Part shown: in pieces, positions 3,554 through 20,000 of the stretch
Layout of the letters: each line of letters opens with the position of its first letter
Position numbering within the stretch: the first letter of the stretch is position 1
Source of the DNA: an uncultured virus (IMG/VR IMGVR_UViG_3300025844_000016)
Taxonomy: Duplodnaviria > Heunggongvirae > Uroviricota > Caudoviricetes
IMG/VR virus record: IMGVR_UViG_3300025844_000016
Length of the DNA: 20,000 nucleotides
Reading direction: 5' to 3' (one strand)
Notes under the pieces: model-generated
The model's database searches: none
What the model was told of the DNA's origin: nothing
What the model saw: the letters and a program-made list of their open reading frames with translations, nothing else
Program-made: the position numbers and the translations under genes

Positions 3554-4275
3554 CAGGCAGCTTCTCCCAGCGCCATGAACTCCTCGTAGAGAGCCGGGGT
3601 GATCTTGCCGGCTCGTTCCAGCCGTCGGACTTCCTTGTCGAAGGCACCCAGCGCGACCAGTTCATGGAACACCTTACGGGTCCACGAAATATCGACGATA
3701 GCGGAGTGAGCGTTTTCCATCTCGACGCCGAAGAAGAAGGGAACCGCTTCCTCCAGCTTGGGCCACTTGTAGTTGGTGCTACCGACCCGGACGACTCCCT
3801 TCTTGGGAATCTTGCAGATCGGTGTGGCGGTCTTCATCGTGCAGAGGAAGGGCGATCCGGCGAAGACATCACTCGGCGTCTTGTGGTTCGGTCGGAGGCG
3901 AGCGTATTCACCTTCCATCACCTTGGTATCGAAGGCGGTGTTGTGACAAACGATCAGGTCGGCATGTTCCGCTGCGATGATGAACATCTCGACCGCATCG
4001 GCGATCGGGATACCCTGCTCTTCGCACATCTCGGGCGTGATGCCGGTGACTTCCATAGCCTTGTGTGAGATGATCGAAGGCGGAAGTTCGCCGGTGGGGT
4101 CTTCGTGGAGATACCAGTTGTCGGGCTTGATGAGGGCGTCGAGCGTGATGACATCAACGCCGTGGCGTTCGAGGATGAAACCAAGCTGCGTGATATTCGG
4201 CTGGTGGGTCTCACCAGTCTCGGGGTCCTTCCGGGGTAGGCCGGTGGATTCCACGTCGAAGAAGAGGATGTTCAT
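3553..4275 (-). CDS. DEDDh 3'-5' exonuclease (DnaQ / Pol III epsilon-like)
   Basis: ExoI FFDVESTGL, ExoII HNTAFD, ExoIII AHSAIVD. Confidence 0.9.
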   Translation of the reverse strand: MNILFFDVESTGLPRKDPETGETHQPNITQLGFILERHGVDVITLDALIKPDNWYLHEDPTGELPPSIISHKAMEVTGITPEMCEEQGIPIADAVEMFIIAAEHADLIVCHNTAFDTKVMEGEYARLRPNHKTPSDVFAGSPFLCTMKTATPICKIPKKGVVRVGSTNYKWPKLEEAVPFFFGVEMENAHSAIVDISWTRKVFHELVALGAFDKEVRRLERAGKITPALYEEFMALGEAA

Positions 4276-4302
4276 GTCGGGGAGAACCTTGTTGTCCAGA
4301 CT

Positions 4303-4880: not shown

Positions 4881-5356
4881 TGTGTTTCCTTAATGTTACT
4901 TTCGCTGTAGCTATGACGTTCTCTGAACGGACGTTCGTAACTTCCTCGGATCACAACATAGTCTCCGGGGATATACCCATTGCATTTATACCGGCTACGG
5001 GGTTCAGGATTATTTGAACCCAAAGCGATATGTCTTTTCCCTATCAGTTTATCAATAGGAAAGCACCATAGATGAGTTCCGACTACCCATAGTTCATCGA
5101 TCTCATCAGGAGTGTATCCATTAAGATGAGATTTAGTTAGAAGTGGGCATCTCTCGTAAGCAAAGTGACCATCACCAAACTTAGACCACTGCGCTGTCTT
5201 TACCTGCACACGCACAGCCTTACCTTCTTTAATGTATACGAGGTCGGCTCGGGACTGGGATGCGATTGACATATGGACATCAAAACCTTTAGCTGCCAGA
5301 TGGGAGGCAACTAAAAGTTCTGATGCTAATCCTAAAGCGGCTGTATCACGAAGCAT
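4877..5356 (-). CDS. PD-(D/E)XK endonuclease, putative free-standing homing endonuclease
   Basis: GLASE...ADLV...RVQVKT motif typical of the I-Ssp6803I-like PD-(D/E)XK family; AT-rich (24/60 GC at 5041-5100); ATG at 5356 overlaps the polA stop (TAATG), so the ORF-track start at 5386 is probably too long. Confidence 0.75.
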   Translation of the reverse strand: MLRDTAALGLASELLVASHLAAKGFDVHMSIASQSRADLVYIKEGKAVRVQVKTAQWSKFGDGHFAYERCPLLTKSHLNGYTPDEIDELWVVGTHLWCFPIDKLIGKRHIALGSNNPEPRSRYKCNGYIPGDYVVIRGSYERPFRERHSYSESNIKETQ

Positions 5357-7671
5357 TAGTGTGTCTCGTGCCAAGCATAACCACACGAAGCTGACGCGTC
5401 AACTGGAAGAGCAAAGTTAAGGTAATTACCAGCTTCTAATGCAGCCTTGACACAGACTTCCATGACTTTTTCTTCAAGACCTTCTCTACAAGCAATTTGA
5501 ATCTCATCGTGGACCCAAGCGCAGAATACGAAATCTTTGTCCCAACCATATTCAAGACCTTCTTCATATAGCATATCTTCCACAAAGATCAGCCACCAGT
5601 TGGCGATCGTGGCACCCATGCCTTGCAGGTCGGTGTTGAGAGCCGCGTGCTTGGAGCGCACGAACAGACGACGGCCATCCAGACCTTCGAGGAACTTACG
5701 TCCGGCTTGACGCTGGATGTCACGGATCACCTTGTTCAGGGCCGGCAAGTTCTTGAGGAACTTCTGCTTGAGTTCCTTACCAATCTTTGCCTGTTGAACT
5801 GGGCTTGAAAGAGGAGAAATAATCTTACCAATCTTCTCGTCGCCCGCCCCATAGAGGAAGGCGTAGATAAAGGTCTTGGCCGTGTCACGCATATCCAGCC
5901 CGGCGAGGCGCTGGTTTTCAGAGTGGATGTCACCTTCGAGCAGAACCTGCCCGTAAGCACCACCGTCATACTTCGCCATTTCATGTGCGAGGCAGCGAAG
6001 CTCGATACCAGCCAAGTCAGACCCGACAAGCTTGAAGCCTTCATAGACCGTAAACAGCGAGCGGCACTCGTAGCCCCAGCCGCCCTTGAGCCCGAGAATG
6101 ATGACTTCGACGATCAGATCGCCATCATCATCACGCTTGAAGAACGGCTCGCCATTTTCATCAACGGACTGAGCAAGCTCCTGCCAGTTATCGCAGCGCC
6201 GTCCCTTGTGCATCACAAGCACCGGACCACCCTTGAAGATGGCATTCGGGCGGATGATACCGGTCGGCTTGGTGATCGGCTTGAGCGCAGTGATCTTGGG
6301 CTTTTTCTTGCGGACGGCCGGGACCTGTGCAAGGTTCGGGAATGCGTGCGTCGCACGGGTGGTGACCGCGCCGCATGGGTTGACGTAGGCGTGGATGCAC
6401 CCGGTGGTAGGATTGTAGACCTTGAGCCACGCCTGCTTGCCGTCAGCCAACTGGCCCATCAGCTTGCGGATCGCGAGCAGATCGGCAAGGTCTTCGGCGA
6501 CCGGGAACTTCTCGACGATCCGGCGAAGGATCACGTCGTTCGCTTTGACGTTACCCTTCTCGGTATAGTCCTCATCCTCAGGCTCCCAACCAAGCTCTTG
6601 CAGTCGGTCGGTAATCTGGGGGCGTGATGTCGGCTTGAACTCCTGCCAGATGATCGGCGTGAAGTGTGCCCCGGCGCTGTAACGAGCGCGGAGCGGGTCC
6701 TTGAAGTTCAGTGCATCCTTTGGTTTGGTCTCGGGGTAGCCATACCACCGGCGGTCAGGGACCAGTTCATCCATCTCGGCGCGTTGCTTGGCGATCGCTT
6801 CGCTGGCCGACAGATTGGAATCGAACTTGATCTCAGCGGTTCCCCAGAAGTCAGGGAACTCGCCGCCGTTGACGTTCCGGCCGATCGGTGCTGTGTCCAT
6901 CCGCTTCTTCGGGATGAAACGACCGGGGAAGGAGATCGCGAGCTTGGCTTCGAGATTGGCTTGCTCGACCGTGAGTTCTCCGGCCAGCATCTTGGCGCGT
7001 GGTGCGTCGAATGGGAATCCGTTCTCCTGCTGCCGGGCCATGAGATCACCGAGACGGTGCTGCACATAGACAGCATCAGGGGAAGCCTCGCGGCTCTCGA
7101 TCATCTTGACCAGAAGGCAGGTGACCTCTACGTCATTGACGCAGTATTCTTCCAGTTCTTCGGTCCACGTCCCCCAGACCCAGAGACGCATTTCCTCGGA
7201 GTCCTTGAGGTAACCCCGTTCGAGACCGATCGCTTCTTTGATCGCCTTGTAGTCGCCCTTATACATGCCGAGACGTTGGCCCCAGCTATCGAGCGTGTGC
7301 TTGCCGATCAGCTTACCTTCGAGCTTGCCGCCTTCGAACAGACGGAAGTCCTTGTCCTTCTGGTCGGGGAACATCAGACGAGCGAGGATCAGCGTGTCGC
7401 GGATACGTGCTTGCGGCTGGTATCCGAAGAGGATTTCCAGCATGGGAATGTCGTAGGCCACGATGTTGTGGCCCCAGATTTCCTCAGCGTCGTCGAGCAG
7501 CGCGAACAGCTTGTGGATCGTGTCCTCGCGCTTGTTCTTGCGGAACACCCACCGCTGGCCGGTGTCATAATCTCGGACCGCGACGCAATGGCAGACCGTG
7601 ACTTGCTCAAGCAGGCCATCGGTTTCCGCGTCGAATACGAGACGACGATATTTTTTCGGCTTGAGCTTCAA
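5356..7671 (-). CDS. polA: Family A DNA polymerase (T7 gp5-like) with 3'-5' exonuclease domain
   Basis: Exonuclease motifs FDAETDG, GHNIVAYD and YCVND; motif A SDLAGIELR; motif B RDTAKTFIYAFLYG; motif C WVHDE. Confidence 0.97.
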   Translation of the reverse strand: MKLKPKKYRRLVFDAETDGLLEQVTVCHCVAVRDYDTGQRWVFRKNKREDTIHKLFALLDDAEEIWGHNIVAYDIPMLEILFGYQPQARIRDTLILARLMFPDQKDKDFRLFEGGKLEGKLIGKHTLDSWGQRLGMYKGDYKAIKEAIGLERGYLKDSEEMRLWVWGTWTEELEEYCVNDVEVTCLLVKMIESREASPDAVYVQHRLGDLMARQQENGFPFDAPRAKMLAGELTVEQANLEAKLAISFPGRFIPKKRMDTAPIGRNVNGGEFPDFWGTAEIKFDSNLSASEAIAKQRAEMDELVPDRRWYGYPETKPKDALNFKDPLRARYSAGAHFTPIIWQEFKPTSRPQITDRLQELGWEPEDEDYTEKGNVKANDVILRRIVEKFPVAEDLADLLAIRKLMGQLADGKQAWLKVYNPTTGCIHAYVNPCGAVTTRATHAFPNLAQVPAVRKKKPKITALKPITKPTGIIRPNAIFKGGPVLVMHKGRRCDNWQELAQSVDENGEPFFKRDDDGDLIVEVIILGLKGGWGYECRSLFTVYEGFKLVGSDLAGIELRCLAHEMAKYDGGAYGQVLLEGDIHSENQRLAGLDMRDTAKTFIYAFLYGAGDEKIGKIISPLSSPVQQAKIGKELKQKFLKNLPALNKVIRDIQRQAGRKFLEGLDGRRLFVRSKHAALNTDLQGMGATIANWWLIFVEDMLYEEGLEYGWDKDFVFCAWVHDEIQIACREGLEEKVMEVCVKAALEAGNYLNFALPVDASASCGYAWHETH

Positions 7672-7740: not shown

Positions 7741-7894
7741 CACGGACAGCAGCGAGGCGATCCGCCGCAGACATTTGCGTAGTGACCAAACTCGAAGTCC
7801 TCGGGTTCTTCCGGCCATTCGGTTGCCTTATCGCAGACGTTGCAGCAGAAGAACAGGATACCATTGTCCTCCCACAATCCGTCTGGGAGTTCAT
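7700..7894 (-). CDS. Possible small hypothetical protein (64 aa)
   Basis: TGATG coupling to the upstream ORF, but its 3' end overlaps the polA promoter and the composition is unconvincing. Confidence 0.3.
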   Translation of the reverse strand: MNSQTDCGRTMVSCSSAATSAIRQPNGRKNPRTSSLVTTQMSAADRLAAVRDRHFELTVTAFCG

Positions 7895-8637: not shown

Positions 8638-10268
8638 GCGTGGAACCTTCCCTTGTTGAGCGTGATGATCGTCCGCTTGCCGTTTTGATACGTGATGATG
8701 TGGCTGTGCGACCACGACGAAGGGCCCTTGTTGTAACCCATGTCGAGGCTACCAGAGACGCCACCAACGTAGGCACCATCGCGGATGGCCGGGCTGTGGG
8801 TGTGGCCGGTATTCGACTTACGGCCTGATCGGCTGATCGCCAGCGGCGAACCCCGCGACCCGTTTGGTCCAAGGTGGCCGTGCATACCGCATTCGATGTC
8901 GCCGCAGATGATGAAAGACTGATCTTCGTTGCAGAACACAACGTCCTCAGGTGTTCCCATCTCCCGCATGACTTGCTGGAACACGTCCGGCGAACTGTTC
9001 CCGGCCTGCATCTCCATGTAGAGCCACTTCTGGCAACTCAGGAAGAACAAGGCGTTCTCAGGATCATCACGATAGTCGGCCGTCTTGAGCCACTTGAGAA
9101 GGGCTTGGTCGTGGTTGGATTCCACAATCACTGACGTGCAGTCATCCCGATGAATTTGCTTGATGAACTCAGCGCAGCCATTCAAAGCCAACTGGACATT
9201 GTTGTTCTGTCCGCCGCGAGTGTGGGCAGCAAACCGGAAGTGGTGGTCCTTGATGTTGTGGTGGTTGCGCGGCGAGAAGTCGCTGAGGTCGTGGAAGAAC
9301 TCATACTTCGGCCGCAGCCGGTGGATCAGCGGCAGCGGGCGCGGATCGTGTGGGTCTCGGAAATTGTCGATGTCCCAAGCTTCCTGCGACGGGACATGGT
9401 ATCCCCACGTCAGCATGGCGACTTCGTGATCCAGCTTTTCGTGGTGAATGTCACCATAGCTGATCGCTTCGACGCGGTGATTGGTCGTCACACCTTGGCT
9501 GGTGACATAGCGATCGAGATCGTAGAACGAGCCATTCTCAAGATCGGTGGTCAGCAGGTGCCGGCAGTAGGTAGCACCGTCCGGAGTCATCTCGACCAGC
9601 ACGGCACCAATCTGGTGGTGGAAGGTGGCCTTGATACCGGCCTTCTTGCGGACGTAGTTCGGTAGCGTGACCGAACCCGTGGTCATCAACTGCTTGGCAC
9701 GCTCGTGCTTCATCGTCGCCACCGATTCCAACTGGACCTTCGGGTGCGGGAAGACGCCCCAGCGAGCGCGGGTGTAGGTGGCGAAACCAGACAGTGGGGT
9801 AACAGCCGTCGGTAGCGTGTTCATCTCGCCGCAGAAATCCACTTCGTCGCCCAGCCGCACGCGGTCATGAACGATGAAGTCATCCACAGACGGGTGGAAG
9901 CCGACTTTGGATGAACGGGTGTCGTGATCCTCGAACAGCTTCTTGCTGTAGGTGAACCCTGAAACGATGATCTCACATTCGCCCAGCCAGTGGGCGTAGA
10001 CATTTAGCGCGTTCCAGAAGTCCTCGTGGATGTCCGAACTGTCTTGAGCCGAAGTCAGGATGAAATAGCGAGTGTGATCCAGCGGTTCGTAAACCGTCGG
10101 CCGGAGCGGACGGTTCGATGAGAACACGAACTCGATCTGTTCACCGAGGTCTTCCTGCACTGCAATGTTTCGCTTCATGCGATAACGCAGTGTGGACTCG
10201 GCGATGTTGAGGGCGCGGGCAGCCGGGCGGATACCGCCGTGCTGGGCGACCAGTTCAAGATATTCCAT
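8634..10268 (-). CDS. HTH plus calcineurin-like metallophosphoesterase/nuclease, T5 A1-like protein
   Basis: N-terminal HTH (GGIRPAARALNIAESTLRYRM); motifs GDIH, SNHD, HGH, GHTH. Size and C-terminus resemble T5 A1 homologues (from recall). Confidence 0.75.
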   Translation of the reverse strand: MEYLELVAQHGGIRPAARALNIAESTLRYRMKRNIAVQEDLGEQIEFVFSSNRPLRPTVYEPLDHTRYFILTSAQDSSDIHEDFWNALNVYAHWLGECEIIVSGFTYSKKLFEDHDTRSSKVGFHPSVDDFIVHDRVRLGDEVDFCGEMNTLPTAVTPLSGFATYTRARWGVFPHPKVQLESVATMKHERAKQLMTTGSVTLPNYVRKKAGIKATFHHQIGAVLVEMTPDGATYCRHLLTTDLENGSFYDLDRYVTSQGVTTNHRVEAISYGDIHHEKLDHEVAMLTWGYHVPSQEAWDIDNFRDPHDPRPLPLIHRLRPKYEFFHDLSDFSPRNHHNIKDHHFRFAAHTRGGQNNNVQLALNGCAEFIKQIHRDDCTSVIVESNHDQALLKWLKTADYRDDPENALFFLSCQKWLYMEMQAGNSSPDVFQQVMREMGTPEDVVFCNEDQSFIICGDIECGMHGHLGPNGSRGSPLAISRSGRKSNTGHTHSPAIRDGAYVGGVSGSLDMGYNKGPSSWSHSHIITYQNGKRTIITLNKGRFHA

Positions 10269-16564: not shown

Positions 16565-17191
16565 ATGGCTATCAAGCGTGCCAAGACCTTCGATGAGAAG
16601 CAGTTCTATCGGCTGCTTACTCACATCGAAACCCACAGCGTCATGCCCAAGCGTGACAAGCTGATTGTGGCTCTGTCATTCAAGGCCGGGCTGCGTGTCG
16701 GTGAGATCGCCAAGATCAAGATCAGCGCGATGACCGATGTCGATGGCGCTATCGCCAAGCAGATCAACATCTTTTCCGATGTTGGTAAGAAGCAGCGGAT
16801 GCGTGACATCCCGATGAACCCCCTGATCAGAACCTGTCTGGAAGAGTTCCGCGAGGAATATCCCAACGCCAAGTTCGTTGCGATTTCTTCGCAGCCCTTC
16901 CGTTGGATTCTGGCACGGGGCCGGCCGATCCCGAAAGATGCTGAGTTCAAGCAGATGTCCCCGGAAGCCTTGAAGACTTACTATCTCAAGATGCTCAAGT
17001 CGTTCGGGTTCGAAGGCGCTTCCACTCACTCGGGTCGCCGAACTTTTGGAACCCAGCTTGCCCGAACAGCTAACGCTCACCACTGCTCACTTCGTGACGT
17101 TCAGCGGTTGATGGGTCACGCTCGGATGGAAACTACCGAAGCGTATATCGAACTCACCGAAGATGCATCTGCGATGGTGATGGCACTCTAA
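16565..17191 (+). CDS. Tyrosine recombinase, catalytic domain only (208 aa)
   Basis: GLRVGE (R), GKK (K), HSGR (H-x-x-R), MGH, TEAY (Y); SD AAGGAG. Confidence 0.92.
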   Translation: MAIKRAKTFDEKQFYRLLTHIETHSVMPKRDKLIVALSFKAGLRVGEIAKIKISAMTDVDGAIAKQINIFSDVGKKQRMRDIPMNPLIRTCLEEFREEYPNAKFVAISSQPFRWILARGRPIPKDAEFKQMSPEALKTYYLKMLKSFGFEGASTHSGRRTFGTQLARTANAHHCSLRDVQRLMGHARMETTEAYIELTEDASAMVMAL

Positions 17192-17240: not shown

Positions 17241-17265
17241 CCGACAACAAATGGAGGATACAGAC

Positions 17266-17832
17266 ATGACGAATGCAGTGAAAACCCCCGCCCGTGGGCG
17301 CAAGAAGATCGATCAGGCAGCCCTCGACGCTGCGAACGAAGCCTCCAAGGCACTGAGCGAGAAGCAGCAGCAGGCCGCTTCGAAGCCCCGTGCCAAGGCG
17401 GCTCCCAAGACCCGCGCCAAGGCCGCTACTGGTCTGGGCAAGCAGCGTCAGGCAGATGCCGCTGCTCCGGTGATGGAAAAGCAGGGGGCTTCGGCTTCCG
17501 GTAAGTCCGCTCCGGTCGAAGAGCTTCGCGGCGGCACCAAGCAGGTGCTGATCACCGAAGCTGTGATGGTCGGACGTTCCGGCCGGCCGGCTGGTGTCGA
17601 GGAATACCCGTTCGGCGAGCTTCCGCCCGCCTACAAGGATGAGAACGGACAGATCGTTGGTCTCTCGTTCTTCATCCCGATGACTGACAAGGCCGAGGGC
17701 AAGCTTTCTGCTGCCCGCAAGCGCCACAAGTGCCTGTTCTGGAGCCGCACGGTTTACGAGCAGGTCAATGGCAAGGGCCCCAAGGTCGAAGGTCTTCGCA
17801 TCTGGCGTGGCACGCCTGACATCAAGGCGTAA
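17266..17832 (+). CDS. Basic Lys/Ala-rich putative DNA-binding protein
   Basis: GGAGG SD before the ATG at 17266; histone-H1-like KPRAKAAPKTRAKAA region; C-terminal domain YPFGEL...SFFIP...GLRIWR. Confidence 0.75.
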   Translation: MTNAVKTPARGRKKIDQAALDAANEASKALSEKQQQAASKPRAKAAPKTRAKAATGLGKQRQADAAAPVMEKQGASASGKSAPVEELRGGTKQVLITEAVMVGRSGRPAGVEEYPFGELPPAYKDENGQIVGLSFFIPMTDKAEGKLSAARKRHKCLFWSRTVYEQVNGKGPKVEGLRIWRGTPDIKA

Positions 17833-17844
17833 CCACGCAAACGG

Positions 17845-17877
17845 AAGGGCCGTCACGAAGGTGGCGGCCCTTTCCTT
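17845..17877 (+). terminator. Rho-independent terminator
   Basis: AAGGGCCGTCAC-gaag-GTGGCGGCCCTT stem followed by a pyrimidine run. Confidence 0.75.
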
Positions 17878-17919
17878 ATAGTGAGAGCCAAATAATTTTC
17901 ACTGACTGTCATTTTTATG

Positions 17920-17948
17920 TTGACACTGACAGTGAGAATCGGTAATTC
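17920..17948 (+). promoter_or_regulatory. Promoter for the first ncRNA
   Basis: TTGACA-N17 (contains AGAATCG)-TAATTC, with no credible ORF downstream. Confidence 0.7.
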
Positions 17949-17955
17949 GGCCCTC

Positions 17956-18186
17956 CAACGTCTGCTCCATGGTTTTCCGAGGGGCAGGAACAGCCGGAGT
18001 CACTCTGACCCCGCAGCGTCGAACTTGGGCGCGAGCGAGTCATTGGCCGGTCTGGTGCGGATACGTTTCGTGTCAAGGGCGGGTAGAACGGGGGAAGCCC
18101 CGAGATCACCGGCCCCCAGCACGATAGGCCAAGCCAGCGCAAGTGGTCCTGTCACGCGGTAAGTCATGGAATATCTCGACGAGTTG
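17956..18186 (+). ncRNA. Unassigned structured RNA A (about 230 nt)
   Basis: Own promoter; nested pairings CAACGTC/GACGAGTTG, TCCATGG/TCATGGA, GGCAGGA/TCCTGTC, TTGGCC/GGCCAA, CGGGG-gaag-CCCCG, GATACG-ttt-CGTGTC. Confidence 0.6.
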
Positions 18187-18199
18187 ATTTGATTAAGTG

Positions 18200-18228
18200 T
18201 TGACACGAATCGAATCACCTAATAGAGA
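18200..18228 (+). promoter_or_regulatory. Promoter for the GOLLD-like RNA and downstream ncRNA cluster
   Basis: TTGACA-cgaatcgaatcacctaa-TAGAGA, with two GANTC sites in the spacer. Confidence 0.7.
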
Positions 18229-18231
18229 GAC

Positions 18232-18793
18232 GGAATGCCAGCCTGATGGCGATAGTGTGAGGCAACTCACATAAAGGGGGTAAGGCCACTTAACCCCGCC
18301 GGTCCCGATCGGTCAATTCAGGCAAGCGCAGTCAGGTCCGCGAGGACCGCTTCACCGGGATAACCTTGCAAACTTAGCATAGTTGGTAATGCAAACGACT
18401 CTTAATCGTGAGATCGGTGGTTCAAACCCACCAGTCTGCTCCAAACGCAAAGATTGCCACGACTGCATGTGAAAGACGCCTAATGCCATAGAGGCTTGCC
18501 TCAATGTGGCCCGACCTGATCTCGCAAGGTGATGGTTGGTTGGTGGAAGAAGTTTCGTTGGGCCCGCAAGCCCTTAATGGCTGGAGACAGTCAGCGGAAT
18601 CGAAACTGCCGAATATCATGCAGTGTCACCGCAAATGCCAGCGGTCCCGTGAGAACCGGGAGAAAAAGGCGGCGTTGGTCTGGAACTGAGCTACCGCAAG
18701 GGGCTTGGTGGATAAGTCGGGAAGGTGACTCGCAAGGTCACTATAATCTGACGAATGACGGATCGTAGCGGGTGTAATCTCAACCTGCTTCCA
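18232..18793 (+). ncRNA. GOLLD-like RNA (compact, about 560 nt) with embedded tRNA
   Basis: Many CGCAAG/GCAA-capped hairpins; ordered motifs TGAAAG...CTA, GTGGATAAG, ATAAT and a terminal hairpin with loop GTAATCTCA match my recollection of the GOLLD 3' domain; embedded tRNA and phage tRNA-cluster context are typical of GOLLD. Not checked with a covariance model. Confidence 0.7.
18368..18443 (+). tRNA. tRNA-Lys(CTT) with encoded CCA
   Basis: Acceptor GCAAACT/AGTCTGC (one A-C mismatch), D arm GCAT-agttggta-ATGC, anticodon arm ACGA-ctCTTaa-TCGT, T arm GGTGG-ttcaaac-CCACC, then T-CCA; 76 nt. Confidence 0.9.
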
Positions 18794-18797
18794 TTTT

Positions 18798-18980
18798 TCG
18801 ATTTCTATGTTGGCCCAGCAAAGAAGGTTAGCTACCTTCCCCTCGGTTCCCGCAGGTCAGGTCGATCCCAGCAATTCTCGAATGCAGACGGATCGTCGAA
18901 GCATCAGGTCCAGTAATTCGAGCCGTGGCTTGATCGCATTGGGCGTCGCTGCAAACCCGCTGGGTCATCATAGAAAACGA
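18798..18980 (+). ncRNA. Unassigned structured RNA B (about 180 nt)
   Basis: Terminal helix TCG-a-TTTCTATG-t-TGGCCCAGC / GCTGGGTCA-t-CATAGAAA-a-CGA; inner helices GAAGG/CCTTC, GGTCAGGTC/GGCTTGATC, CTCGAAT/ATTCGAG. Confidence 0.65.
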
Positions 18981-18982
18981 TA

Positions 18983-19151
18983 GCCCGGAGTAACCGCCAC
19001 AACAGATTGGTAGCTTCCATGGAAAGTTGTCGGGAGTTGGTCAGGGATGTTTAGGTGAAGTCGCCTTCGAAAGCGGCGCGGTGGATCGGAAAGCAGGGTT
19101 GATCTCCTGTGGAACGATAGGCCAGTGGTTCGACTCCACCTCCGGGCTCCA
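18983..19151 (+). ncRNA. tRNA-like RNA C (169 nt): acceptor stem, T arm and CCA around a large non-tRNA body
   Basis: GCCCGGAG/CTCCGGGC 8-bp stem, GTGG-TTCGACT-CCAC T arm, T discriminator plus CCA; no canonical D or anticodon arm. Confidence 0.7.
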
Positions 19152-19158
19152 TAACGCT

Positions 19159-19298
19159 TCACTCGTAATGAAGCTTCTCAGCGGAATGTCGGCGGTCACG
19201 CGACCTAACCGGCGATCCGTGGGTTTACACTGAACCGGCGGAAGGAAGGGCGTAGTGAACCCGGCCGAGCTTCGAGAGGCCCCATTACGAGTGATCCA
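19159..19298 (+). ncRNA. Unassigned structured RNA D (about 140 nt)
   Basis: Perfect 12-bp TCACTCGTAATG/CATTACGAGTGA followed by T-CCA; inner GCTTCTC/GAGAGGC and GGGTTTAC/GTGAACCC. Confidence 0.65.
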
Positions 19299-19427
19299 TT
19301 TGTGATCGGGCCGGCGGCACCAGATAGGTTTAAGGCGAGTGGACTCCCGTCGAACGGAGACGACAGACCCGGATAAAAACCGTGTATGGGTGTTGCTAGT
19401 GCTTTGGCCGCCGGCCTGATCACAGAT
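19298..19427 (+). ncRNA. Unassigned structured RNA E (about 130 nt)
   Basis: 21-bp terminal helix ATTTGTGATCGGGCCGGCGGC / GCCGCCGGCCTGATCACAGAT, with two G-U pairs. Confidence 0.65.
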
Positions 19428-19430
19428 GTT

Positions 19431-19516
19431 TCACTTGCAACAAGGGAGGCGGGCACCGTCGGGAAACCGGGACGGATGATTCGCGAACTTTAGTCCGCTC
19501 TCCTTGTTGCGAGTGA
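19431..19516 (+). ncRNA. Unassigned structured RNA F (86 nt)
   Basis: About 24-bp terminal helix TCACTTGCAACAAGGGAGGCGGGC / GTCCGCTCTCCTTGTTGCGAGTGA (G-U pairs, one mismatch); apical CCGTC-GG-gaaa-CC-gg-GACGG. Confidence 0.65.
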
Positions 19517-19530
19517 TGTTCGAGTTTTTC

Positions 19531-19691
19531 TCACTTCCCTGTCCGCAGGGGTGACCCGGTAGGTAACCAAGGGTGGTTCGAATATCCTCGCATTTAGTTC
19601 CTGTGGGTTCCATGGAGCCCCTTGAATCCTCAAGCAGGTGACAGAGAGTTAAAGGAGCCGCCCTGCTCCGAAACCAGATAAAATGGGTGAG
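19531..19691 (+). ncRNA. Possible structured RNA G (multi-hairpin; boundaries uncertain)
   Basis: Hairpins CCCTG-tccg-CAGGG, GGGTG-gttcgaa-TATCC, GGGTTC-catg-GAGCCC, CTTGA-atcc-TCAAG, GGAGC-cgccct-GCTCC; closing CTCGCATTT/AAATGGGTGAG. Confidence 0.5.
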
Positions 19692-19704
19692 TGCAATTTT
19701 TTAG

Positions 19705-19733
19705 TTGACATTCGAATCGGATGTCGTTACACT
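19705..19733 (+). promoter_or_regulatory. Promoter of the leader-peptide / tRNA unit
   Basis: TTGACA-ttcgaatcggatgtcgt-TACACT; CGAATCG in the spacer. Confidence 0.8.
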
Positions 19734-19785
19734 TCGATCATCAAGACCGGGATGTTCCGGCCAAACAGGATTTCAGAGTTCAACC

Positions 19786-19875
19786 ATGTTCAACGTAGTC
19801 GCCATGAATAACCCAGCAGCACCGGCCATTATGGTCCCGGTCGCGATGGCGTGCGAACAGATGGTTGGTGGCTAG
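19786..19875 (+). CDS. Putative leader peptide (29 aa, MFNVVAMNNPAAPAIMVPVAMACEQMVGG)
   Basis: Short ORF between a promoter and a terminator hairpin; SD is weak. Confidence 0.5.
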   Translation: MFNVVAMNNPAAPAIMVPVAMACEQMVGG

Positions 19876-19904
19876 GCCACTTCACTCTCCAAGCAGTTAT
19901 CTCG

Positions 19905-19941
19905 ATCGGGGGCCATGGCAACATGGCCCCCGATTTCGTTT
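19905..19941 (+). terminator. Terminator/attenuator hairpin immediately upstream of tRNA-Pro
   Basis: Perfect 13-bp ATCGGGGGCCATG-gcaa-CATGGCCCCCGAT followed by TTCGTTT. Confidence 0.7.
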
Positions 19942-20000
19942 CAGGGTCTAGCTCAGTTGGAAGAGCGTCCGGTTTGGGACCGGAAGGCCGTAGGTTCGAG
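19942..20000 (+). tRNA. tRNA-Pro(TGG), truncated by the window edge
   Basis: CAGGGTC-TA-GCTC-agttggaa-GAGC-g-TCCGG-ttTGGga-CCGGA-aggcc-GTAGG-TTCGAG... Confidence 0.92.

Follow-up and report, generated by a model that had tools for sequence, protein, structure and literature searches.

Phage transfer RNA (tRNA) islands hold many structured RNAs other than tRNAs, among them GOLLD, ROOL and Y-RNA-like RNAs, none of which has a known job. The tRNA cluster of phage T4 carries stable small RNAs, 'species 1' and 'species 2', among its tRNA genes, and these are matured together; T4 has two such RNAs and not a train. In the part of the report of Chen et al. (2014, PMC4201824) drawn on here, bacterial Y RNAs are small, closed by a helix joining their two ends, and some of them mimic tRNAs, are phage-encoded or are linked to RtcB operons. 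A catalogue derived from the IMG/VR collection, as described in the consulted part of its text, comprises 8,495 covarying candidate structured RNAs, tRNA-like ones included (Fremin and Bhatt 2023, PMC10690425). Here, we analyzed 20,000 nucleotides (nt) of DNA from an uncultured virus (IMG/VR record IMGVR_UViG_3300025844_000016), referred to as the window, whose source is a 39-kilobase viral contig. Positions 18798-19691 of the window, directly behind a GOLLD gene, hold a real and conserved train of new small RNA families found in one phage clade, one member of which is an expressed tRNA mimic. The train and its tail comprise the following elements (bp, base pairs; MFE, minimum free energy):

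18798-18980, + strand: unit A, a 183-nt multi-branched RNA with a 21-bp closing helix, delimited as an MFE domain and by covariation.
18983-19151, + strand: unit B, a 169-nt tRNA look-alike, recognized from its sequence, five homologues and an RNA contig.
19159-19294, + strand: unit C, a 136-nt RNA closed by UCACUCGUAAUG/CAUUACGAGUGA (12 bp) and a further 7-bp helix, present in 6/6 phages of the clade.
19297-19428, + strand: unit D, a 132-nt RNA with a closing helix of at least 22 bp that includes two G-U pairs, present in 4/6 phages.
19431-19516, + strand: unit E, an 86-nt RNA hairpin closed by UCACUUGCAACAAGG/CCUUGUUGCGAGUGA (9 plus 6 bp), present in 4/6 phages.
19515-19587, + strand: unit F1, a domain of 73 nt whose closing helix, GAUGUUCGAG/GUUCGAAUAUC, surrounds an inner CCCUGUCCGCAGGG hairpin, present in 4/6 phages.
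19588-19691, + strand: tail of the sixth unit as first proposed, unsupported as a unit (window-specific, z-score -0.5).

Versions of this train occur in six distinct phages, namely that of the window, L006, L007 and L191 (uncultured), XM05 (L001) and vB_EliS-L02 (L002, hereafter L02). The Erythrobacter phages XM05 and L02 are the closest named relatives, with 78% identity over parts of 17840-20000 (blastn), and the window's own phage is represented by four more identical copies in IMG/VR and JGI contigs. In the excerpts of its description that were consulted (PMC9127768), L02 is a CbK-like siphovirus with 29 tRNAs, an RtcB-type ligase and a peptidyl-tRNA hydrolase, and these excerpts do not mention non-coding RNAs (ncRNAs) other than tRNAs.

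Unit B is framed like a tRNA. Its 7-bp acceptor stem is formed by 18983-18989 (GCCCGGA) and 19141-19147 (UCCGGGC), U73 follows at 19148 and an encoded CCA at 19149-19151, and a T-arm (GUGG-UUCGACU-CCAC) lies directly before the acceptor 3' strand. The body of the unit contains a helix named P2, which holds a variable insert, and a hairpin whose 8-nt loop, GUUGAUCN, is conserved and includes the palindrome GAUC. Homologues were identified in L006, L007, XM05 and L191, the last being more divergent and without CCA. In an anchor-guided alignment of these five sequences, the acceptor, P2, T-stem and loop-hairpin stems covary. The seven acceptor pairs are kept in 4-5 of the 5 sequences with one to three pair types per position, and GGUUCGA is invariant in 5/5, with three of the five T-stem pairs varying with compensation. 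The 5-bp P2 helix is encountered in the variants AUCACC/GGUGAU, UUCGCC/GGCGGG and UUGUC/GGCAA, and the stem under the GUUGAUCN loop in the variants GCAGG/CCUGU, GUCGG/CCGAU and AGCGAG/CUCGUU. A UUUAGG motif is conserved together with the 8-nt loop in five phages. U73 followed by an encoded CCA is also usual for the tRNA genes of this phage and points to no particular amino acid.

Unit B shares with tRNAs, and with the tRNA-like domain of transfer-messenger RNA (tmRNA), a 7-bp acceptor stacked on a T-stem of 4-5 bp, a UUCGANU loop, a discriminator base and CCA. It differs from a tRNA by its length (169 nt, with 70-95 nt expected) and by the absence of a D-arm and of a 7-nt anticodon loop, in place of which P2 with its insert and the GUUGAUCN hairpin are found, the latter providing the only loop candidate. 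An intron-bearing tRNA was likewise rejected, as relaxed or intron-option ARAGORN folds were mutually inconsistent or not obtained. Unlike a tmRNA, unit B has no G3-U70 pair (positions 3-70 being CG, UA, GC, GC and GC), no tag reading frame and no pseudoknots; ARAGORN in tmRNA mode (-m) with a lowered threshold returned nothing in 4/4 sequences, and the phage has a separate two-piece tmRNA. With default settings ARAGORN made no call on unit B, and the Rfam tRNA and tmRNA models gave no match to it at E<=10. No reading frame common to unit B of the window, L006 and L007 could be read from the alignment. A short open reading frame (ORF) behind AGGUGA was dropped, since its frame differs between homologues, as was a likeness of GGUUGAUCACC to the 3' end of 16S ribosomal RNA, which is unconserved across homologues and without an Rfam match. 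Judged by these sequence features, unit B mimics a tRNA but lacks an anticodon loop.

A covariance model of unit B (R2), built from three homologues with the window left out, finds exactly 18983-19151 at 24.4 bits. When R2 was run over 100 sources, ordinary tRNAs scored as high as the window's unit B and the divergent L191 copy was missed. Because ordinary tRNAs score alike, R2 cannot separate B-like RNAs and sees mainly the tRNA-like frame.

Words of 18200-19950 occur in 24 sequencing runs, six of them RNA libraries, and four of these (X18-X21) were compared as assembled contigs, not reads. In X19, unit B alone is covered by a 159-nt metatranscriptome contig (18987-19145) without mismatch, at a depth of 16.4 compared to 6.35 for GOLLD in the same run. 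GOLLD is covered in 4/4 RNA runs by contigs ending at 18761, 18770, 18761 and 18760, none of which enters unit A. Since DNA carry-over would cover the stretch evenly, such patchy cover fits stable RNAs. At least one module, unit B, therefore occurs as a discrete RNA species. The original prediction had envisaged a single polycistronic transcript, started from a promoter at 18200 and processed into separate RNAs. Of this, the existence of a separate RNA is supported for unit B, which has its own contig. A single transcript finds no backing in the assemblies, as no contig in X18-X21 bridges any module boundary. The 18200 promoter fares no better as the source: RNA is already assembled upstream of it, as a contig at 17987-18131 between two TTGACA copies at 17920 and 18200, so that the probable start site of GOLLD transcription is the one at 17920 and not that at 18200.

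These data bear directly on whether the train could be one long multi-domain RNA in which each unit is a domain, be it GOLLD extended at its 3' end or another giant RNA. The spacers between units are only 0-7 nt long, no promoter-like site was found within 18798-19691, GOLLD-class RNAs are large and modular, and no contig ends are available for A, C, D and E, all of which would suit such a molecule. However, the GOLLD contigs stop at 18760-18770 in all four runs, the RF02032 model of GOLLD itself ends at 18786, and unit B is assembled as a separate contig at higher depth; the extension was rejected on these grounds. Furthermore, order and content of the units differ between close relatives, which one co-folding RNA could hardly tolerate, and terminator-like hairpins lie between GOLLD and the train in two relatives. 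We therefore regard one long RNA as unlikely.

The thermodynamic signal of the region as a whole is pronounced. For 18787-19700 (914 nt), the + strand has an MFE of -377.4 kcal/mol compared to -330.3 for its shuffles (standard deviation 7.75, z -6.1, 20 shuffles), and the signal of the - strand is weaker (-338 compared to -305.5, z -4.4). With the base-pair span limited to 230 nt, the top-level MFE domains are 18798-18980, 18982-19148, 19159-19294, 19297-19428 and 19431-19516, which correspond to units A-E within 4 nt. Evaluated one by one against 100 dinucleotide shuffles each, the units gave z-scores (+/- strand) of -4.9/-3.0 for A, -4.6/-4.9 for C, -6.0/-6.2 for D and -5.6/-5.0 for E, and of -1.0/-0.6 for B, -1.5/-1.1 for F1 and -0.7/+1.3 for the sixth unit as first proposed. 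Three coding controls ranged from -1.7 to +0.7 on both strands. Every unit has the lower absolute MFE on the + strand, unit D for instance with -65.1 compared to -55.5 on the - strand.

That this folding arises by chance in a GC-rich non-coding gap could be argued from units B, F1 and the sixth unit as first proposed, which are no more stable than their shuffles. The z-scores of A, C, D and E (-4.6 to -6.0) lie well apart from those of the coding controls, the units are conserved in six phages, and their covariation exceeds all shuffle and slide controls (see below). Chance folding is refuted for A-E, and for the train we give it next to no probability.

Taken together, the original prediction is partly confirmed, and the observation behind it holds largely. 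It had described about 900 nt with neither a credible ORF nor an obvious internal promoter. Both descriptions stand: the seven overlapping ORFs are short (52-83 amino acids), the six other than the 52-amino-acid ORF at 19041-19199 on the - strand gave no Pfam family at E<=0.01, and a motif search of 18798-19691 returned no promoter-like site. Of the six self-contained units it proposed, A-E are recovered at the positions given as MFE domains, and the sixth (19531-19691) gives way to F1 (19515-19587), the only conserved part. Helices joining the two ends had been described for B to F; they are present in B-E, the one of F is absent from the MFE structure, and A is closed as well. Pairing at the RNA level on the + strand is borne out by the lower + strand MFE of every unit, by a G-U pair of unit A kept in all sequences and by the strand bias of the unit A model. 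The region had also been said to match no known RNA core and to be undescribed. A gathering-score search of the window and an E<=10 search of 17840-20000 with Rfam 15 returned, within 18798-19691, only a spurious mir-1976 match on the unit E hairpin (27.6 bits compared to a gathering score of 71), which agrees with the first statement as far as Rfam goes, but the tRNA acceptor stem, T-arm and UCCA end of unit B had been missed. As to the second, there is no Rfam 15 family, and the full-text literature searched, which did not cover the supplements of the 8,495-candidate catalogue (PMC10690425), contains no description of these RNAs.

Units A and C carry the comparative evidence for RNA structure. 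Covariation was controlled by 500 shuffles and by sliding of the pairing partners. In unit A (four sequences), 95.6% of the cells of 46 pairs are paired, and 19 pairs change on both sides, compared to 7.5 +/- 2.0 after shuffling (reached in 0/500) and 1-4 when slid. The invariant motifs CCCGCAGG and CGCUGCAAA pair with each other via GCAG/CUGC, and the G-U pair at columns 18/175 is kept in 4/4 sequences. The unit A model (R1) finds exactly one copy in 5/6 phages of the clade at 159-195 bits on the + strand and none in XM05, the contrast between strands being 191 bits on + versus at most 28.5 on -. In unit C (six sequences), 94.7% of the cells of 35 pairs are paired, with 13 compensatory pairs compared to 5.4 +/- 1.6 after shuffling (0/500) and 0-4 when slid; an additional measure counting further pair types was reached in 44/500 shuffles and is not significant. 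The closing helices of unit C and an internal GUAGUGA are kept, and the interiors diverge. A likeness of CAGGUCAGGUC in unit A to signal recognition particle RNA was dropped, being unconserved across homologues and without an Rfam match.

Units A and B also bear on the proposal that the region serves the tRNA array only as a spacer, for processing or insulation, where cis-acting hairpins provide stability, termination or RNase entry, unit B is a decayed tRNA pseudogene and nothing acts in trans. Its location between two transcription units in a tRNA island, the lack of an anticodon loop and D-arm in B, and the frequent use of long hairpins as RNase III and terminator elements speak for such a spacer. 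Yet a pseudogene would not keep covarying helices, the 8-nt loop and UUUAGG in five phages, nor would it exceed GOLLD in RNA depth. Similarly, the multi-branched fold of A with its 19 covarying pairs goes beyond what a spacer needs, and the more distant Sphingobium phage Lacusarx does without the region altogether. On balance, a role as spacer appears quite improbable.

The remaining units are more uniform in sequence. Unit D has 38 consensus pairs and is about 90% identical across its sequences. The closing helix of unit E is identical in all four phages that carry it and encloses an interior that exists in two unrelated forms: the window and L191 have the short one, and that of L006 and L007 is about 45 nt longer. 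Unit F1 has 21 pairs and a weak thermodynamic signal (z -1.5). The termini UCACU...AGUGA are common to C and E, and similar ends occur on one extra module each in L007 and L191. In the window, the 5' ends of C and E read UCACUYG (19159-19165 and 19431-19437) and their 3' ends CGAGUGA (19288-19294 and 19510-19516). The internal GUAGUGA of unit C lies at 19254-19260 and is invariant in 5/6 homologues (UUAGUGA in the sixth); judging from its sequence, it could pair alternatively with the 5' UCACU and replace the closing helix. The tail beyond F1 (19588-19691) cannot be aligned to the relatives, which have a different module of about 225 nt there, and ends in a conserved A/U tract, AAUUUUUUAG, just 5' of the next promoter-like site.

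Order and presence of the modules are shuffled among relatives. The order A-B-C-D-E-F1 is found in the window and L006, and in L007 with three further modules; L191 has A-C'-B'-D-E-F1, XM05 a terminator-like hairpin followed by C-B and no A, and L02 other modules together with a C variant and A. This shuffling argues for modules that are independent units. In Lacusarx, homologues of two genes that precede the island in the window, those of a small tyrosine recombinase and of a 193-amino-acid protein, are present, but the tRNAs come next, and both GOLLD and the modules are missing. GOLLD and train are therefore an addition particular to phages of the Erythrobacter type, to which the recombinase is not bound.

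The same mosaic could reflect inverted repeats that act in DNA, as hairpin or recombination joints of cassettes resembling miniature inverted-repeat transposable elements (MITEs) or attC sites, possibly through the recombinase at 16565-17191. In line with this, terminal inverted repeats surround a variable interior in C, D and E, the terminal repeats of D and E are near-invariant and the interior of E is swapped, C and E have common ends, and a gene of the Phage_integrase family is conserved two genes upstream. However, the same recombinase and its neighbour gene stand beside the module-free tRNA array of Lacusarx, each module family occurs once per genome, as exemplified by the single copy of unit A, without dispersed copies, and the interior helices of A and C covary. 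Moreover, G-U pairs and strand asymmetry favour RNA, and B is present as RNA. We thus consider action as DNA joints very unlikely.

The reach of the families was assessed by several searches. Blastn against 50,697 phage records matched 19, of which only XM05 and L02 extend beyond the tRNA-Pro gene, and searches with the 193-amino-acid protein (single sequence and alignment) returned only 5 viral and 2 metagenome loci. A pattern for unit C matched only the 5 known contigs. The unit A pattern matched 115 loci, and 100 of these screened by R1 yielded one true relative (L191) and four weak matches (E 0.047-0.7). The 119 loci matched by the unit B pattern are mostly D-arms of long-arm tRNAs, and 92 of them were included in the R2 run. 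The 19-nt invariant word of unit D has 4 matches in genome contigs, close to the chance expectation (about 4), and all of them stop within 19-23 nt. Within these sequence searches, the module families are confined to six Erythrobacter-type phage genomes.

Overall, we consider it probable, though well short of certain, that the region comprises six or more small ncRNA genes (A, B, C, D, E and F1) that fold independently and form a train on the + strand of the RNA island of a CbK-like Erythrobacter-type phage. They are best read as co-located small RNAs that are matured with the tRNAs. Several points weigh against this reading. The predicted covariation in homologues is clear in A and C, and compensation is scant in D, E and F1, with only 3, 2 and 3 compensatory pairs, respectively; the near-invariant helices of these three units could instead have a DNA-level or protein-binding role. 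All alignments comprise 3-6 sequences of a single phage clade, and this relatedness inflates the shuffle significance. Few and related sequences make the shuffle control overstate significance; sliding the partners is a fairer test, and its result for A and C is clear as well. Units B and F1 are, as indicated above, not more stable than shuffles. No RNA contig lies over A, C, D, E or F1 in X18-X21, although contigs drop rare RNAs and this does not amount to absence; of the six modules, only B has contig evidence of expression. The contig of unit B comes from a single run, and contigs give no exact RNA ends. Finally, the terminator-like hairpins between GOLLD and the train, in XM05 (L001) at 4235-4281 and in L006 at 7822-7893 with a U12 run, put uninterrupted read-through from GOLLD into the train in question.

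Under the train reading, the closing helices would let the modules fold singly despite spacers of 0-7 nt and would mark the sites at which a precursor is cut. Unit B may be cut by the enzymes of tRNA maturation, with RNase P acting at 18982/18983 and 3' trimming to the encoded CCA, and a double-strand RNase of the host, for example RNase III, may cleave the long, perfect helices present in A, C, D and E. Once mature, the RNAs would have their targets in trans, in the tRNA- and RNA-handling machinery of host or phage. For unit B the likeliest action would be mimicry of the acceptor and elbow, by which it might tie up enzymes that bind tRNA, or host nucleases directed at tRNA, while taking no part in decoding, and the anatomy of B as predicted from sequence fits such a decoy role. 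RNA-repair or Y-RNA-like action would have to proceed without a phage Ro protein, because RtcB is encoded in 4/5 related phage records and a Ro60/TROVE gene was found in 0/5; phage RNase III and a PF01743 nucleotidyltransferase were each found in 0/5 of these records. One could go further and propose exchangeable RNA cassettes, in which the closing helix is both precursor cut site and swap joint and the B-led RNAs would work with the GOLLD cage and the phage ligase RtcB as decoys or clients against defences that cut or sense tRNAs. We regard this extended scheme as a long shot.

The train places at least six unassigned RNA families directly behind one GOLLD gene, shuffled between relatives, and its tRNA mimic B is detectable in environmental RNA. 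The cultured relatives XM05 and L02 put experiments within reach, and these might show what the adjacent GOLLD is for. Should the RNAs prove to be decoys against tRNA-directed defence, an RNA-based layer would be added to phage counter-defence.

Upstream of the train, the window holds a replication module on the - strand (DNA polymerase A, an SNF2 helicase and a deoxycytidine monophosphate deaminase), and only RNA is found from about 17920 onward. The neighbouring features are:

16565-17191, + strand: small tyrosine recombinase of the Phage_integrase family, 208 amino acids (Pfam).
17251-17832, + strand: 193-amino-acid gene, without a Pfam family in a Pfam search.
18340-18786, + strand: GOLLD RNA, conserved 3' half (122.1 bits and E 3.8e-33 with Rfam RF02032, whose gathering score of 150 is not reached).
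18368-18443, + strand: tRNA-Lys(CUU) embedded in GOLLD (Rfam and ARAGORN).
19705-19733, + strand: promoter-like site (TTGACA, 17-nt spacer, TACACT), the 3' bound of the train (motif, kept in relatives).
Contig L008, beyond the window, at 4988-5094, 5992-6131, 6139-6233, 7044-7131, 7134-7238 and 8851-9042: uncalled stem-closed RNAs with GGUUCGA motifs.

The recombinase lies two genes before the tRNA island and is kept in XM05, L02 and Lacusarx. GOLLD scores 157 and 159 bits with RF02032 in L006 and L007, respectively, compared to 122 in the window. The window carries a short form, with 11 nt at 18354-18364 compared to about 300 nt in L006, L007 and XM05 and about 370 nt in L191, and the long form was observed in RNA run X20, with 299 additional letters at 18359/18365. 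The tRNA embedded in GOLLD varies as well, being Lys in the window and XM05, Glu in L02 and Ile in L191. The promoter-like motif, TTGACA with a spacer containing CGAATCG(A/G)AT, recurs at 17920-17925, 18200-18205, 19705-19710 and L008 ~4283.

The island is thus ordered as GOLLD with its embedded tRNA, the train, and about 27 tRNA genes with a Y-RNA-like RNA and a two-piece tmRNA. All 27 tRNAs called by ARAGORN on the contig lie downstream on the same strand, and CCA is encoded by nearly all of them. Between the train and the array, a 29-amino-acid ORF (MFNVVAMNNPAAPAIMVPVAMAC...) at window 19786-19875 encodes a peptide kept in 6/6 phages with in-frame indels (28-31 amino acids), and is followed by a 14-bp GC-rich hairpin (19904-19935) and two tRNA-Pro genes; from their arrangement, ORF and hairpin could form a leader peptide or attenuator for the tRNA array. 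A further 26 tRNA genes are located past the window end, together with a YrlA-like RNA and an alphaproteobacterial tmRNA in two pieces. The YrlA-like RNA (L008:2545-2648, corresponding to window 20328-20431) is a permuted tRNA-like RNA about 640 nt 3' of the train, in which a T-arm and an acceptor-like hairpin precede a D-arm; it matches Rfam YrlA at 37.5 bits (gathering score 69), and equivalent matches occur in L006 and L007. The tmRNA (L008:8419-8850) scores 75.9 bits with RF01849, above the gathering score of 50, and 70.2 bits with tmRNA_permuted. The stem-closed RNAs listed above lie in gaps of the tRNA array, carry T-arm-like GGUUCGA motifs and received no ARAGORN call; in two of them the 3' end is an acceptor-like stem followed by ACCA.

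Among described systems, the bacterial Y RNAs of the YrlA family (RF02553) resemble units A, C, D and E in the helix joining the 5' and 3' ends. They differ in that RF02553 has no match in 18798-19691 at E<=10 and that none of the five related records has TROVE, and the Ro-binding motif GNCGAAN0-1G, as given in the consulted part of PMC4201824, occurs only inside the hairpin loop of D and in no 5' strand. The catalogue of Fremin and Bhatt (PMC10690425), to judge from its partially consulted text, draws on the same IMG/VR collection and may include these units. Similar in setting are GOLLD and ROOL, which, according to the part of the cryo-EM preprint drawn on here (10.1101/2024.12.08.627333), are likewise phage-borne structured RNAs beside tRNA islands; in contrast to them, the units described here are 73-183 nt long, separable, reordered between relatives and placed outside the RF02032 model.

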